A DNA stretch of 26,813 nt from a virus, in UHGV virus genome UHGV-0083306. The stretch is one strand, 5' to 3'. The notes under the pieces were generated by a model that was given only the letters and a program-made list of their open reading frames with translations, made no database searches and was not told where the DNA came from. Positions 7,206 through 26,763 of this stretch are shown piece after piece (positions within the stretch are counted from its first letter, which is position 1; every line of letters starts with the position of its first letter). The position numbers and the translations under genes are program-made.

Positions 7206-7678
7206 ACCTCAATCTCTCTGACCGCTCCGCCAGCCTCTTTGAATTTTGCAATCAGGCTGTCAGCCTTATGCTCGAACTGGCCATAACCAGCACCCGGCAG
7301 TGAAGCCCAGATATTGCTGCAACGGTCGATTGCCTGACGGATATCACCGCGATCAATCATCGGTAAAGCGCCACGCTCTTTAATCTGCTGCAATGCCACA
7401 GCGTCCTGGCTTTTCGGAGAGAAGTCTTTCAGGCCAAGCTGCTTGCGGTAGGCATCCCACCAACGGGAAAGAAGCTGGTAACGTCCGGCGGCTGTTGATT
7501 TGAGTTTGGGGTTTAGCGTGACAAGTTTGCGAGGGTGATCGGAGTAATCAGTGAATAGCTCTCCGCCAACAATGACGTCATAACCATGATTTCTGGTTTT
7601 CTGACGTCCGTTATCAGTTCCCTCTGACCACGCCAGCATATCGAGGAACGCCTTACGTTGATTATTGATTTCCACCAT
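7202..7678 (-). CDS. R: endolysin, lambda R-type lytic transglycosylase
   Basis: 158-aa [42 protein letters not shown]… matching lambda R. Confidence 0.9.
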
Positions 7679-7985
7679 CTTCTACTCCGGCTTTTTTAGC
7701 AGCGAAGCGTTTGATAAGCGAACCTATCGAGTCAGTACCGATGTAGCCGATGAACACGCTCGTTATATAAGCGAGATTGCTACTTAGTCCTGCGAAGTCG
7801 AGAAGGTCACGAATGAACCAGGCGATAATGGCGCACATCGTTGCGTCGATTACTGTTTTTGTAAACGCACCGCCATTATATCTGCCGCGAAGGTACGCCA
7901 TTGCAAACGCAAGGATTGCCCCGATGCCTTGTTCCTTTGCCGCAAGAATGGCGGCTAACAGGTCATGTTTTTCTGGCATCTTCAT
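7662..7985 (-). CDS. S: holin, lambda S-type
   Basis: 107-aa [46 protein letters not shown]… matching lambda S, including the Met1-Lys2-Met3 dual start. Confidence 0.9.
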
Positions 7986-8580: not shown

Positions 8581-9072
8581 CTATCCCATACTGGAGAATT
8601 CACCATGATATTTTATCCTGGCATTTTCCATTGCCTTTCTAGCCTCCTCGATATCGTCAAAACACCCTACATGAATCCTTTTACCATTGACTCTAATTCT
8701 TCCAACCCACTTGTTTGCAGCAGAATTAAAAGTCACCCCCTTCACACCAGATGAATTGTTTTTCCTCATCTTGCTGTTCCATGAGTTTTGAGTGTTAGTA
8801 ACAACACGAAGATTGGCTATCCGGTTATCAGACCTATCACCATTAATATGGTCAATCACATCGGTTGGCCAATCATTGTAAACCATCAGCCATGCAATTC
8901 TATGGACATATAGCCGCATTCCATAAAGTTTTACCTGCAGATATCCATTGGTTTTATAGCCAACAACAGCGCCATAGATAAATCTAGAGGACCGAGGTGG
9001 ATTCTTCCATGTAAGAATTCCAGTATCTGGATTGTAATTAAAAAGTCTCAATGCATCTTCACGTTTTAACAT
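8581..9072 (-). CDS. HNH endonuclease with AP2 domain (homing-endonuclease-like), inserted in the late leader
   Basis: 163-aa ORF with HNH motif DVIDHINGDRSDNRIANLRVVTNTQN and AP2-like C-terminus (SGVKGVTF…KWVGRIRVNGKRIHVGCFDDIEEA); visibly AT-rich; lies between pR' and tR'. Confidence 0.8.
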   Translation of the reverse strand: MLKREDALRLFNYNPDTGILTWKNPPRSSRFIYGAVVGYKTNGYLQVKLYGMRLYVHRIAWLMVYNDWPTDVIDHINGDRSDNRIANLRVVTNTQNSWNSKMRKNNSSGVKGVTFNSAANKWVGRIRVNGKRIHVGCFDDIEEARKAMENARIKYHGEFSSMG

Positions 9073-9343: not shown

Positions 9344-9967
9344 CTAACGTGTGACCGCATTCAAAATGTTGTCTGCGATTGACTCTTCTTTGTGGCATTG
9401 CACCACCAGAGCGTCATACAGCGGCTTAACAGTGCGTGACCAGGTGGGTTGGGTAAGGTTTGGGATTAGCATCGTCACAGCGCGATATGCTGCGCTTGCT
9501 GGCATCCTTGAATAGCCGACGCCTTTGCATCTTCCGCACTCTTTCTCGACAACTCTCCCCCACAGCTCTGTTTTGGCAATATCAACCGCACGGCCTGTAC
9601 CGTGGCAATCTCTGCATCTTGCCCCCGGCGTCGCGGCACTACGGCAATAATCCGCATAAGCGAATGTTGCGAGCACTTGCAGTACCTTTGCCTTAGTATT
9701 TCCTTCAAGCTTTGCCACACCACGGTATTTCCCCGATACCTTGTGTGCAAATTGCATCAGATAGTTGATAGCCTTTTGTTTGTCGTTCTGGCTGAGTTCG
9801 TGCTTACCGCAGAATGCAGCCATACCGAATCCGGCTTGTGATTGCGCCATCCCCATAGCAGCCATCACATCAGTACCGGAAAGAGAGTCAGAAGCCGTGG
9901 CCCGTGGTGAGTCGCTCATCATCGGGCTTTTTGGCGAATGAAATTTAGCTACGCTTTCGAGTCTCAT
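9344..9967 (-). CDS. Q: late antiterminator Q (lambda-type)
   Basis: 207-aa ORF MRLESVAKFHSPKSPMMSDSPRATASDSLSGTDV… with the zinc-finger cysteines (CRDCHGTG…CGRCKG); matches lambda Q. Confidence 0.9.
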   Translation of the reverse strand: MRLESVAKFHSPKSPMMSDSPRATASDSLSGTDVMAAMGMAQSQAGFGMAAFCGKHELSQNDKQKAINYLMQFAHKVSGKYRGVAKLEGNTKAKVLQVLATFAYADYCRSAATPGARCRDCHGTGRAVDIAKTELWGRVVEKECGRCKGVGYSRMPASAAYRAVTMLIPNLTQPTWSRTVKPLYDALVVQCHKEESIADNILNAVTR

Positions 9968-10152
9968 GGCCTTCCCCTTTTTCCCTGTTTGACCATCAGG
10001 ACGCCGTTAACTATTACGTGACGCTCGCCTTTACTGTCTCGGTTGTACTTGAGCACTGTTCCTCTTGCGCAGGAAAGCATCCTTGCCACTTCGGTCTGAT
10101 TGCCTCGTGTCTGGATAAGAAGCTCTGGTATCGTTTGAATTGTGGCGTTCAT
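9964..10152 (-). CDS. ninH: NinH-like protein
   Basis: 62-aa ORF …GNQTEVARMLSCARGTVLKY… similar to lambda NinH (GNQTEVARRLKCSRGTVRKY); directly upstream of Q. Confidence 0.6.
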   Translation of the reverse strand: MNATIQTIPELLIQTRGNQTEVARMLSCARGTVLKYNRDSKGERHVIVNGVLMVKQGKRGRP

Positions 10153-10511
10153 ACGTTCTCCAGTTCGGTGATTTTTATTCCAAGCCGTCCGCCTGGTACT
10201 TTCACACCACGAATTACGCGAATGTCATCGAATTGCTCGTCGTCTTCCGCAAATCCGGCGTGGATAAGGGAGTCGAGTAAACCTTTCAGGATGTTATCGA
10301 GGTCGCGGCGGCGGGAGTCTGGAACGTCTGCGATGACTTTGATGCGGAGTCTTGATTTGGTGAAAATGTCTAACTTGAGTTGGCGGATGATTTGCTGAAC
10401 GTCTTTTCGGTATTTCTGGCCTTTATCGCTGATGTAGTATTGGCTTCCCCGTCTTCGCCAGTAGGTGTTCACCGACGGCGGGTAAGGAAGCACAAACTGA
10501 TATTCGTTCAT
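10149..10511 (-). CDS. rusA: Holliday-junction resolvase RusA
   Basis: 120-aa ORF with RusA motifs (…DVPDSRRRDLDNILKGLLDSLIHAGF…GGRLGIKITEL). Confidence 0.85.
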   Translation of the reverse strand: MNEYQFVLPYPPSVNTYWRRRGSQYYISDKGQKYRKDVQQIIRQLKLDIFTKSRLRIKVIADVPDSRRRDLDNILKGLLDSLIHAGFAEDDEQFDDIRVIRGVKVPGGRLGIKITELENV

Positions 10512-11345: not shown

Positions 11346-11481
11346 ACGTCCTCCTTTTCCTGCGGTAGTGGTAAAACTCCTGTTGGTGTTCTTTCACACC
11401 GGAGACACCATCGATTCCAGTAAGGTTAATTTGGTCTGAAGCGGTTATCTTCTTTGCATTCACCGCACCGATCACATCGCA

Positions 11482-11903
11482 TCATGCAGCCCGATCTCCC
11501 CATCTCGCTTTCCACTCCAGAGCCAGTCGCGCTTCGTCTGACCACTTAACGCCACGCTCTGTACCGAATGCCTGTATAAGCTCTAATAACTCCGCAAATT
11601 CGCTTACACGCATCCTGCTGGTTGACTGGCCTATTACCACAAGCCATTCCCGGCAAGGTTAGGAACAACGTCCTGCTGCTTTAATGCTGCGGTAAACACA
11701 CACTTCCAGCTTTCTGCATCCAGCCAGCGACCATGCCATTCAACCTGACGAGAGACGTCACCAAGGCAAGCCCAAAGCTTTCGATTCTGGTCTAAGCTGC
11801 GGTTGCGCTGCTTAAACTCGACAATGATGTCTAAATCGCATGTCCTAAGATACTGAATGGCGTTATATCTTATAGATTCATTAGTAAGGTGTATTTGACA
11901 CAT
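11482..11903 (-). pseudogene. ninB: ninB (orf) 3' portion, frameshifted
   Basis: 11903-11634 encodes NinB-like …QRNRSLDQNRKLWACLGDVSRQVEWHGRWLDAESWKCVFTAALKQQDVVPNLAGNG then stops; the rest ([52 protein letters not shown]) continues in the -1 frame from 11640 to a stop at 11482-11484. Confidence 0.65.
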
Positions 11904-11909
11904 TTCATT

Positions 11910-12497
11910 TTAATACCTCGCAAATTCGCCGAAACATTCATCCGCTTTATTTGCATATACTTTATGAGCTTCCTTTGGGTCATCGTAAAACCCAAGATTA
12001 ACTTTCCTCTTGTTGATTACGATTTGCGCCCTCCATTTTCTTGATTTCTTATCCCATGAAACGCCTTTATATCCTGATTTGTTATTTGCCTTTTTGTTTA
12101 CGTTTTGGATGTTTTGAGATCGAGTTGCCAATCTAAGATTTGCTATACGATTGTCATCCCTAACGAGATTTATGTGGTCGATATCACTTTTTGGTAGACT
12201 GCCATTCATATAGAGCCACGCCAGCCTGTGTGCCTTATAAAGTTTTCCATCGACTTTTATTACCCAGTAGCCTTCGCTACTCTTATGCCCTGCGATATCC
12301 CCAGCATTCATTCTCTGGCATTTCTTTACTTTCCATGTGAATTTCCCTGTTAACTCATCGTAGAGAAGGACTTCTTTAAGTCTCTGCTGAGTTATTTGAT
12401 TGATTGGTTTGGTTGGGTCTGGAAGAATTTGCTGTATCGCGTGAATAACGTTTTGCTGATGAATGGGGCTTCTTAGTTCAAACGTTAGTTTCCTCAT
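11910..12497 (-). CDS. HNH-AP2 endonuclease fused in-frame to the first ~33 codons of ninB
   Basis: 195-aa ORF: residues 1-33 MRKLTFELRSPIHQQNVIHAIQQILPDPTKPI match the NinB N-terminus; the rest carries HNH (DIDHINLVRDDNRIANLRLATRSQN) and AP2 (SGYKGVSWDKKSRKWRAQIVINKRKVNLGFYDDPKEA); paralog of the 8581-9072 gene. Confidence 0.75.
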   Translation of the reverse strand: MRKLTFELRSPIHQQNVIHAIQQILPDPTKPINQITQQRLKEVLLYDELTGKFTWKVKKCQRMNAGDIAGHKSSEGYWVIKVDGKLYKAHRLAWLYMNGSLPKSDIDHINLVRDDNRIANLRLATRSQNIQNVNKKANNKSGYKGVSWDKKSRKWRAQIVINKRKVNLGFYDDPKEAHKVYANKADECFGEFARY

Positions 12498-20394: not shown

Positions 20395-20583
20395 ATGTCA
20401 CTTGCAACCACAGTGAAGGAGAGCAAGTTACAGAGGCGCATGTACACGCAGCAGGCGTTAATGTATCGCCAGAAGGGAGATCGTGAAGGTGTTCGCGTAT
20501 TTTTAAATGCGGCAAAGACTGAAGTATTAAATCAGCGTTATTTCCTTGGGCCATGTCCATTCTTAGAACAAACATATGAGTAA
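20395..20583 (+). CDS. small protein coupled to erf (Arf/Kil position)
   Basis: 62-aa ORF with strong SD AAGGAGAT; its 3' end overlaps the erf start by 8 nt. Confidence 0.45.
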   Translation: MSLATTVKESKLQRRMYTQQALMYRQKGDREGVRVFLNAAKTEVLNQRYFLGPCPFLEQTYE

Positions 20584-21181
20584 AGAATTTTACGCAAGAC
20601 TGGCAGCTATTCAGGAGAATCTGAACGCGCCAAAGAATCAGTACAACTCATTCGGTAAATATAAATACAGAAGCTGCGAAGACATTCTTGAAGGCGTTAA
20701 GCCGTTACTGAATGGTCTGTTTTTATCAATCAGCGATGAAGTTGTGTTGATTGGTGATCGGTATTACGTGAAAGCCACGGCAACTATTACTGATGGCGAA
20801 AACAGTCATACGGCAACCGCTCTTGCACGAGAGGAAGAAAGCAAGAAAGGAATGGATTCTGCACAAGTTACGGGAGCTACAAGCTCTTATGCACGCAAGT
20901 ATTGCCTCAATGGTTTGTTCGGCATTGATGATGCGAAAGATGCAGATACAGACGAGCATAAACATCAGCAGAACGCAGTAGCAAAGCAATCAAAACCATC
21001 ACCTACACCTGAACAGGTTCTAAAAGCATTCACTGACGCAGCAATGCAGAAAAACACCGTGGAAGAGCTTAAACAGGCGTTCGCCAAAGCGTGGAAGATG
21101 CTCGAAGGCACACCGGAGCAGCACAAAGCGCAGGACGTTTACAACATCAGACGAGACGAATTAGAAGGAGCGGCTGCTTAA
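20576..21181 (+). CDS. erf: Erf single-strand annealing recombinase (P22 Erf-like)
   Basis: 201-aa ORF; MSKEFYARLAAIQENLNAPKNQYNSFGKYKYRSCEDILEGVKPLL… matches remembered P22 Erf. Confidence 0.85.
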   Translation: MSKEFYARLAAIQENLNAPKNQYNSFGKYKYRSCEDILEGVKPLLNGLFLSISDEVVLIGDRYYVKATATITDGENSHTATALAREEESKKGMDSAQVTGATSSYARKYCLNGLFGIDDAKDADTDEHKHQQNAVAKQSKPSPTPEQVLKAFTDAAMQKNTVEELKQAFAKAWKMLEGTPEQHKAQDVYNIRRDELEGAAA

Positions 21182-21564
21182 TGGCACATTCGATTACTGT
21201 AAGACTAAACAAGCCCGCAAGAGAGTTTCAGGCCGGGGAAAATATCGGATTCAACATCCGTGCTGGCGTTCAGTATTACGATCGCCAGACAAAAAAGAAA
21301 GAATGGACAAACTACAGCGCCGTTGTATTTGCCAAGCCGGGAGCGCAAGCGGATTACTACCGTAGCGTTCTGGATGAAGGAGGCATTGTGGAAATTACCG
21401 GAGAAAACATCAGGGTTGATGTTTATCAGGGGCAAAATGGTCAATCAATCACTCTTGAATTACTGAATGCAAAGATTGGATTTGCAGCTTCAGGAAATGG
21501 CCCGCAGCAGCAAAGTAGTAACCAGCAGAACACTCCTGTATACGACGATTCCATCCCATTCTGA
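21181..21564 (+). CDS. SSB-like protein with C-terminal DDSIPF tail
   Basis: 127 aa from ATG 21181 (SD AGGAG; overlaps erf stop TAATG); Gly/Gln-rich linker ending …YDDSIPF, like the SSB acidic tip DDDIPF. Confidence 0.6.
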   Translation: MAHSITVRLNKPAREFQAGENIGFNIRAGVQYYDRQTKKKEWTNYSAVVFAKPGAQADYYRSVLDEGGIVEITGENIRVDVYQGQNGQSITLELLNAKIGFAASGNGPQQQSSNQQNTPVYDDSIPF

Positions 21565-21587: not shown

Positions 21588-21884
21588 ATGCCAGCGCCTC
21601 AGTATGGTGCGGATGACCCGCGCCGCTGTTCCGGCAATTCCGTATCGGAGGTGCTGGATAAATTCAGAAAAAACTACGACCTGATAATGTCGCTACCGCA
21701 GGAAACGAAAGAGGAAAAGGAATTTCGCCATTGTATATGGCTTGCAGAGAAAGAAGAACGAGAGCGAATTTACCAGACATCAATCCGACCATTCCGTAAA
21801 GCCACATATACCCACTTCCCTGAATATATCGACCCGCGCCTGCGTAATTACCGCTCACGCTATGGCGCTATCAGTAATGACTGA
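21588..21884 (+). CDS. hypothetical protein (98 aa), possible Abc2-like anti-RecBCD
   Basis: Size and position after erf/ssb fit P22 Abc2; not confirmed by sequence recall. Confidence 0.35.
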
Positions 21885-25496: not shown

Positions 25497-25715
25497 ATGT
25501 ACTTGACACTTCAGGAGTGGAACGCACGCCAGCGACGCCCAAGAAGCCTTGAAACAGTTCGTCGATGGGTACGCGAGTGCAGGATATTCCCTCCTCCGGT
25601 TAAGGATGGAAGAGAGTATCTGTTCCACGAATCAGCGGTAAAGGTTGACTTAAATCGACCAGTAACAGGTAGCCTTTTGAAGAGGATCAGAAATGGGAAG
25701 AAGGCGAAGTCATGA
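25497..25715 (+). CDS. xis: excisionase Xis (lambda)
   Basis: 72-aa ORF MYLTLQEWNARQRRPRSLETVRRWVRECRIFPPPVKDGREYLFHESAVKVDLNRPVTG… matches lambda Xis; overlaps int. Confidence 0.92.
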   Translation: MYLTLQEWNARQRRPRSLETVRRWVRECRIFPPPVKDGREYLFHESAVKVDLNRPVTGSLLKRIRNGKKAKS

Positions 25716-26763
25716 GCGCCGGGATTTACCCCCTAACCTTTATATAAGAAACAATGGATATTACTGCTACAGGGACCCAAGGACGGGTAAAGAGTTTGGA
25801 TTAGGCAGAGACAGGAGGATAGCAATTACTGAAGCAATACAGGCAAACATTGAGTTATTTTCAGGACACAAACACAAGCCTCTGACAGCGAGAATCAACA
25901 GTGATAATTCTGTTACGTTACATTCATGGCTTGATCGCTACGAAAAAATCCTCGCCAGCAGAGGAATCAAGCAGAAGACACTCATAAATTACATGAGCAA
26001 AATTAAAGCAATAAGGAGGGGTCTGCCTGATGCTCCACTTGAAGACATCACCACAAAAGAAATTGCGGCAATGCTCAATGGATACATAGACGAGGGCAAG
26101 GCGGCATCAGCCAAGTTAATCAGATCAACACTGAGCGATGCATTCCGAGAGGCAATAGCTGAAGGCCATATAACAACAAACCCGGTCGCTGCCACTCGCG
26201 CAGCAAAATCAGAGGTAAGGAGATCAAGGCTTACGGCTGACGAATACCTGAAAATTTATCAAGCAGCAGAATCATCACCATGTTGGCTCAGACTTGCAAT
26301 GGAACTGGCTGTTGTTACCGGGCAGCGAGTTGGTGATTTATGCGAAATGAAGTGGTCTGATATCGTAGATGGATATCTTTATGTCGAGCAAAGCAAAACG
26401 GGCGTAAAAATTGCCATACCTACAACATTGCATGTTGATGCTCTCGGGATATCAATGAAGGAAACACTTGATAAATGCAAAGAGATTCTTGGCGGAGAAA
26501 CCATAATTGCATCTACTCGTCGTGAACCGCTTTCATCCGGCACAGTATCAAGGTATTTTATGCGCGCACGAAAAGCATCAGGTCTTTCCTTCGAAGGGGA
26601 TCCGCCTACCTTTCACGAGTTGCGCAGTTTGTCTGCAAGACTCTATGAGAAGCAGATAAGCGATAAGTTTGCTCAACATCTTCTCGGGCATAAGTCGGAC
26701 ACCATGGCATCACAGTATCGTGATGACAGAGGCAGGGAGTGGGACAAAATTGAAATCAAATAA
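25693..26763 (+). CDS. int: integrase (lambda Int, tyrosine recombinase)
   Basis: 356-aa ORF MGRRRSHERRDLPPNLYIRNNGYYCYRDPRTGKEFGLGRDRR… matching lambda Int throughout. Confidence 0.95.
   Translation: MGRRRSHERRDLPPNLYIRNNGYYCYRDPRTGKEFGLGRDRRIAITEAIQANIELFSGHKHKPLTARINSDNSVTLHSWLDRYEKILASRGIKQKTLINYMSKIKAIRRGLPDAPLEDITTKEIAAMLNGYIDEGKAASAKLIRSTLSDAFREAIAEGHITTNPVAATRAAKSEVRRSRLTADEYLKIYQAAESSPCWLRLAMELAVVTGQRVGDLCEMKWSDIVDGYLYVEQSKTGVKIAIPTTLHVDALGISMKETLDKCKEILGGETIIASTRREPLSSGTVSRYFMRARKASGLSFEGDPPTFHELRSLSARLYEKQISDKFAQHLLGHKSDTMASQYRDDRGREWDKIEIK

Follow-up and report, generated by a model that had tools for sequence, protein, structure and literature searches.

NinB in Lambda and in the Present Phage

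Lambda nin5 deletion phages, which are without ninB, are viable, and HNH homing genes that insert into a host gene and rebuild or split it are exemplified by mobE in nrdA of Aeromonas phage Aeh1. The ninB product of lambda, Orf, is a dimeric ring whose dimer interface is formed by the elements beta1-alpha1-beta2 and alpha3-beta3-beta4; the substitution R103E abolishes DNA binding and V106E impairs it, the C-terminal helix (R132, W137, R140, W141) contributes to DNA binding, and the protein is described as a substitute for host RecFOR (PMC4118853).

The ninB locus of UHGV virus genome UHGV-0083306 (the window, that is, the whole analyzed stretch of 26,813 nucleotides) resembles that of lambda Orf (PF05772; PDB 1PC6) in its nin-region position between the replication genes and ninD/ninE/rusA/Q, in a repaired protein sequence that is near-identical from residue 39 onward, and in the conserved channel residues (RNRSLDQNRKLW). 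In contrast to lambda Orf, the ninB of the window is distributed over three frames by two 1-nt deletions and yields no intact product by standard translation; its first ~34 residues derive from a divergent NinB N-terminus brought in by an HNH cassette. It is likely, with a probability of roughly 0.7, that this gene represents a real, inherited loss-of-function allele in a temperate phage or prophage of E. coli, a case of tolerated accessory-gene decay. With its 1-nt indels and its nonsense codon in early genes that are not essential, the window resembles pseudogenes of prophage accessory genes; the sole unusual point, compared to other nin-region pseudogenes, is the occurrence of the identical TTT to TT deletion on several haplotypes. 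The ninB of the window is an ordinary, rare pseudogene of a dispensable gene, without a new mechanism.

The window phage combines P22-like head genes with a lambda-type integrase. The integrase protein (25693-26763, plus strand) is identical to a lambda-type Int that many genomes of E. coli encode, that of O157:H7 EC4115 among them, next to a pectinesterase-family gene, namely ybhC at the lambda attachment site; the position of Int beside this gene indicates E. coli as the host, despite the P22-like head genes.

The Divided ninB Gene

Every gene around ninB is encoded on the minus strand. The N-terminal fragment of ninB (89 aa, MCQIHLTNES...AGNGLW*) occupies positions 11634-11903 on the minus strand; it runs from a rescue ATG at 11903 to a TAA stop at 11634-11636 and ends with the residues ...PNLAGNGLW*. 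The C-terminal fragment (52 aa, VVIGQSTSRMRV...KARWGDRAA*) occupies positions 11482-11640 on the same strand; it begins with a GTG at 11638-11640, overlaps the 89-aa ORF, and lies in the -1 frame relative to it in the ORF list. Both coordinates and sequences are exactly those given in the original prediction. Each fragment exceeds the Pfam cutoff for NinB (PF05772, 23.8 bits); the 89-aa ORF covers profile positions 4-96 of 131 (E=6.5e-28) and the 52-aa ORF, which also aligns with 1PC6, covers positions 99-131 of 131 (E=1.2e-10). Since consecutive segments of the NinB profile are matched, the two ORFs are two pieces of one gene and not a chance pair.

The reading frame breaks at 11641-11642 (minus strand), where the window has TT and its relatives have TTT (GGCTTTGTGG changed to GGCTTGTGG). 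The site was defined by pattern scans, by alignment of ninB DNA with phage Sf6 and eight E. coli prophages of the same arrangement, and by blastn against 14 relatives; all 11 of 11 aligned relatives have TTT, and one T is absent from the window. The loss of one T from GGCTTTGTGG, for which the original prediction had named alignment to ninB homologs as a check, is thereby borne out, as the homologs show TTT throughout. The NinB proteins of the relatives comprise 142-146 aa encoded in a single frame, and an intact 35-mer that contains the TTT is present on at least 120 IMG/VR contigs. The 1476 ninB copies that a query of 101 nt centered on the site found among 1303 complete genomes of E. coli matched it at 99.0% at best, equivalent to the single gap, and therefore no complete-genome E. 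coli copy carries TT. Exact-pattern scans for TT also gave no matches in GTDB representative genomes, IMG/VR, and JGI metagenomes. By these sequence counts, TT is a rare allele.

A second deletion, again of a single T and overlooked in the original prediction, is located near the 5' end of ninB at 11891-11892 (minus strand; AAATATCACC changed to AAATACACC); it was found by alignment with Sf6 and the E. coli prophages and by blastn, and the extra T is kept in eight of eight cassette-bearing relatives. In the relatives, the ninB reading frame (MKCVKYHLTNES...) opens directly behind the HNH stop codon, at an ATG equivalent to 11906-11908. The deletion places this native ATG out of frame in the window, where it opens a dead-end ORF of 12 codons (MKCVKYTLLMNL*; 11870-11908, minus strand) with the better-spaced Shine-Dalgarno sequence GAGG; the rescue ATG at 11903 lies 5 nt downstream of the native ATG and farther from the GAGG. 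In place of an uninterrupted, full-domain NinB ORF (~136-147 aa), the window contains a 12-aa stub, an 89-aa ORF, and a 52-aa ORF in three frames. With both T's put back, the gene encodes a NinB of 142 aa that is identical in sequence to WP_047667601.1 (locus L002); this repaired protein matches lambda Orf (PDB 1PC6) with E=1.7e-73. The 5' deletion by itself is not clearly inactivating, because it occurs alone in the E. coli isolate assembly GCA_031702725.1, where a 140-aa NinB (WP_311021751.1) is annotated from the rescue ATG.

The HNH Cassette

The ORF that precedes ninB (195 aa; 11910-12497, minus strand) encodes an HNH_3 and AP2 homing-type endonuclease; the HNH_3 domain is recognized in Pfam with E=9.2e-17, and the AP2 match is weak (E=1e-06; 29.4 bits, under Pfam's 33.3-bit cutoff). 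Codons 1-32 of this ORF (12402-12497; MRKLTFELRSPIHQQN...PTKPI) constitute the original 5' end of a lambda-type ninB. The remainder of the HNH ORF, together with a divergent replacement for the ninB 5' end, forms an inserted cassette of 586 bp (11816-12401, minus strand); in blastn, the homology to Sf6 ninB ends at 12402 and is picked up again at 11815, and these positions mark the two junctions. The replacement N-terminus of NinB is divergent but homologous (MKCVKYHLTNESIRYNAIQYLRTCDLDIIVEFKQ...). The cassette is present, with the same junctions, in 8 of 1359 E. coli genomes that have a ninB match, and is missing from most lambda-type ninB genes; like a homing cassette, it combines an HNH domain with variable presence at one fixed position of a gene that is otherwise conserved.

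The original prediction had counted the endonuclease insertion as a disruption of ninB, and had on these grounds described the gene as doubly disrupted. Two lesions do exist, but the second one is the deletion at 11891/11892 and not the insertion; a full ninB of 429 nt (142 aa) with its own ATG after the HNH stop codon is annotated as NinB in all eight complete cassette-bearing E. coli genomes, and the 142-aa cassette-type NinB was seen on 284 contigs. As judged from these gene arrangements, the HNH cassette rebuilds ninB rather than destroying it. The allele encoding WP_047667601.1 (AVS0578, NZ_CP124374.1) has the same order as the window, with a ninB 5' remnant, the HNH_3/AP2 ORF, and then ninB, and this type of HNH-ninB segment shares 98.5% DNA identity with window positions 11481-12497; the two T's that the window lacks are present in the eight cassette-bearing E. 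coli genomes, and these encode NinB at full length. For annotation, ninB is best marked as a pseudogene (two frameshifts) and ninD as truncated, and the HNH gene upstream is not to be taken for an insertional disruption of ninB.

Free-standing HNH homing endonuclease genes share several features with this cassette: an HNH_3 ORF with a weak AP2-type match, polymorphic presence in a conserved phage gene, and diverged sequence at the insertion point. The cassette differs from them in that the host gene is re-created downstream, unsplit, and in that the endonuclease takes over the old start and 32 codons of its host gene. No ATG, GTG, or TTG start is found in the ninB-linked endonuclease where the N-terminus of a 163-aa paralog aligns (residue ~33-35 of the fusion), and thus the endonuclease is probably translated from the old ninB start codon. 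The diverged junction sequence (ATCATTGTCGAGTTTAAGCAG vs. ATCGTAGTAACCATTCAGGAA) may protect the cassette from self-cleavage. The 163-aa paralog itself, a second HNH_3 and AP2 endonuclease at 8581-9072 (minus strand), is 40% identical to the ninB-linked one, and both of its domains exceed the Pfam cutoff; its position, with the gene for the Q antiterminator (9344-9967) on one side and that for the holin (7662-7985) on the other, is taken by tRNA genes or by nothing in relatives.

A different arrangement was observed in E. coli MS 115-1 (NZ_CP146665.1; locus L010, 12110-13121), where an ORF for a NUMOD4 endonuclease follows a ninB with a divergent C-terminus; the NUMOD4 ORF terminates in ...KARWGDRAA, the final residues of lambda-type NinB, and constitutes a mirror image of the window cassette. 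On comparison of the two loci, ninB seems to be targeted at both ends by homing-type genes. A literature search on endonuclease insertions in ninB returned nothing relevant. The cassette design, together with the recurrent TT deletion, provides small leads for the field of homing endonucleases and phage recombination.

Consequences for NinB Function and ninD

The channel residues (lambda R41, Q45, N46, K48, W50) and the DNA-binding residues (R103, V106, W137) of lambda Orf are all encoded in the window, on separate chains. The 89-aa piece keeps the conserved channel residues along with the region that corresponds to beta1-alpha1-beta2 (the RAGNYA motif); the counterparts of R103 and of V106 belong to the out-of-frame 52-aa piece, as does the C-terminal helix involved in DNA binding. 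Since the DNA-binding residues are confined to the out-of-frame piece, the 89-aa piece is expected to be inactive, and NinB activity is most likely lost in this genome. The inactivation of ninB put forward in the original prediction is upheld in this respect: the frameshift splits the NinB domain across ORFs that are out of frame with each other. The same prediction had tentatively attributed the dispensability of NinB to compensation by Erf, an SSB-like protein, and RusA. The genes for Erf (20576-21181) and RusA (10149-10511) are indeed present, as is the gene for the anti-RecBCD protein Abc2 (21588-21884); the "SSB-like" ORF (21091-21564) was without a Pfam match. Compensation by any of these proteins is an unnecessary idea, because Orf substitutes for RecFOR and nin5 phages without ninB are viable.

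Immediately downstream, ninD (11426-11485, minus strand) is truncated to 19 aa by an in-frame TAA at 11426-11428, at a codon for which the nearest intact alleles, those of E. coli PM7 and AVS0578, have CAA; this change is the sole mismatch to E. coli PM7 in 101 nt, and an exact match to the window at this site was absent from all 223 complete genomes of E. coli in which the segment occurs. The ninD start codon overlaps the ninB stop codon; together with this overlap, the nonsense codon fits the decay of a ninB-ninD segment that is no longer translated. Within 470 bp (11426-11892), three lineage-specific changes have accumulated, two frameshifts and one nonsense codon, all of which alter or break a frame; this is more than simple neutral drift predicts, and counts against plain decay. 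Hypermutation of the ninB-ninD stretch was considered and rejected: the comparison picked out just a single private substitution between 11172 and 12497, and without enrichment of private substitutions a general mutational hotspot is unsupported.

The preferred reading, a tolerated loss of function, takes the following course. The parent allele is a 142-aa ninB directly downstream of the HNH homing-endonuclease cassette; two single-T deletions have cut it into the 12-codon stub, the 89-aa piece, and the 52-aa piece, and the 89-aa piece is readable only from the poorly spaced rescue ATG at 11903. The phage presumably tolerates this loss because NinB/Orf is accessory and overlaps in function with host RecFOR. 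The ninB-ninD segment, no longer translated, would decay further, and the nonsense codon in ninD would be part of this decay. The locus thereby shows that natural prophages of E. coli lose lambda Orf/NinB now and then, with no damage visible in the remaining genome; its biological significance at large is little.

Recurrence of the TT Deletion and Alternative Explanations

Lambda-type ninB genes that lack the HNH cassette show the change from TTT to TT as well, on four further contigs (L017-L020; Logan SRR13674868 and ERR12183104, ENA ERZ27299359 and ERZ28644800) that differ in SNP haplotype and in neighboring genes and that correspond to seven samples by per-contig counts. With the window included, the deletion occurs on at least five SNP backgrounds, and this recurrence hints at a process beyond random decay, for example a mutational hotspot, (short-patch) recombination, or selection. 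The unrelated ninB lesions of other prophages (L142, L147, L148, L144, L145) consist of a CAG to TAG nonsense change, 1-nt deletions at other sites, and 5' truncations. Damaged ninB accounts for 2 of 115 complete IMG/VR copies (loci L083 and L140) and ~98% are intact; on this tally, ninB is normally maintained and occasionally lost.

A selected loss of ninB and ninD, for example as an escape from a NinB-sensing host defense, or alternatively a scar of error-prone repair beside the homing cassette, would account for the three frame-altering or frame-breaking changes that flank or lie inside the HNH cassette against a low background of private substitutions, and for the recurrence of the TT deletion in unrelated prophages. 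Both variants are unlikely: the TT deletion is found in ninB genes without a cassette as well, the 5' deletion is not clearly inactivating, given the 140-aa product annotated elsewhere, and the ~98% of intact ninB copies imply that its loss is not generally favored. A search of the literature for a link between NinB and a host defense system found none, which also speaks against an escape allele.

The possibility that the deletions are artefacts, that the true sequence reads TTT (and ATATC at the 5' site), and that ninB is intact, is quite unlikely. It draws on the position of the deletion in a short homopolymer, on the name of one carrier contig (NODE_118..._cov_2.97), which indicates a coverage of only ~3x, and on the absence of TT from the complete-genome E. 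coli copies, IMG/VR, GTDB representatives, and JGI metagenomes mentioned above. Runs of three bases, however, are not typical error sites of Illumina sequencing. The 89-aa product is encoded, in exactly this form, on 5-6 contigs that come from Logan and from two assemblies in ENA; the ENA contigs (ERZ27229439 and ERZ1742766) match the window with 100% identity over 10.3 kb and 7.4 kb, and their names, "k115_" in one case and "NODE_..._cov" in the other, suggest that they were made by different assemblers. As a caveat, the carriers that are identical to the window may represent one strain sampled repeatedly and not independent lineages. The further TT contigs with different neighbors and SNPs, and the independent occurrence of the 5' deletion in an NCBI isolate assembly, also argue against an artefact, and a one-off sequencing error at TT is unlikely. 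The concern over a homopolymer error that accompanied the original prediction is in this way largely answered, as the truncated product has been found in several assemblies.

The frequency of indels in the rest of the window points in the same direction. The window was compared with 14-19 relatives and all indels not divisible by three were listed; the comparison covered ~14.4 kb shared with at least three relatives and ~20 kb shared with at least one. Within these ~14-20 kb, the two ninB deletions were the only uncompensated 1-nt indels by which the window differs from all aligned relatives, and the alignment was gap-free over a 5.2-kb block of head, portal, and terminase genes and over a 3.8-kb primase block. 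General sequencing noise was rejected as an explanation, since no indels but the two ninB deletions are uncompensated and also set the window apart from every aligned relative.

Another alternative holds that NinB remains functional in two pieces, with termination and re-initiation producing residues 1-93 and 95-146 as chains that reassemble. The sequence around the TT deletion lends itself to such coupling; the deletion yields GTGGTAA, with the TAA a single base behind a GTG that is in frame, so that start and stop overlap, and this GTG has a weak Shine-Dalgarno sequence with a predicted -4.9 kcal/mol, vs. -4.7 kcal/mol for the lambda-type ninB start (12497). The 52-aa ORF is repeatedly predicted by gene callers, the C-terminal ORF is free of further lesions in every TT allele, and the presence of an identical deletion on at least five SNP backgrounds would be explained. 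The split appears to fall within a Gly-rich AGNG segment between two short strands, a placement that combines the element order alpha3-beta3-beta4 (PMC4118853) with a low-confidence model; this single-sequence AlphaFold model of the repaired NinB reaches a pLDDT of 53, too weak for placing the split site reliably. In the window, the 5' deletion diverts ribosomes from the well-placed native ATG, and thus little translation may reach the GTGGTAA coupling site; the knockout of ninD suggests that the segment is not under selection; and since the TT alleles look recent, their intact C-terminal ORFs carry little information. A functional two-piece NinB is therefore very unlikely.

The recurrence of TT on at least five backgrounds, taken together with the near-seamless GTGGTAA at an apparent surface turn of NinB, may nevertheless mean that TT is not plain decay. 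It would then represent a tolerated or selected conversion to a translationally coupled, two-chain NinB, or a recurrent escape allele from a NinB-sensing defense; for the TT allele as such, either origin is decidedly improbable, and in the case of the window, both the 5' deletion and the nonsense codon of ninD argue that the ninB-ninD segment is simply dead. Programmed -1 frameshifting by the ribosome, or transcriptional slippage, as a route back to full-length NinB would agree with the overlap of the 89-aa and 52-aa ORFs and with the -1 position of the downstream frame, but can practically be dismissed: the window for fusion spans just ~24 nt (11634-11658) and this overlap contains neither a slippery heptamer (X XXY YYZ) nor a homopolymer of at least 4 bases, homologs encode NinB in a single frame, and the two-frame arrangement is not conserved, with TT in 0 of 1476 E. 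coli copies and TTT in at least 120 IMG/VR copies.

Partial NinB Sequences in Databases

Partial NinB proteins in 90% clusters were considered as candidate frameshift alleles and rejected; the ones inspected all lack the GLW ending in their sequence and look as if they were cut at contig ends. Many NCBI draft genomes break their contigs within ninB, and dozens of entries named "partial NinB" (in clusters P0049, P0063, and others) are cut at various points; ninB behaves as a repeat that co-resident prophages have in common.
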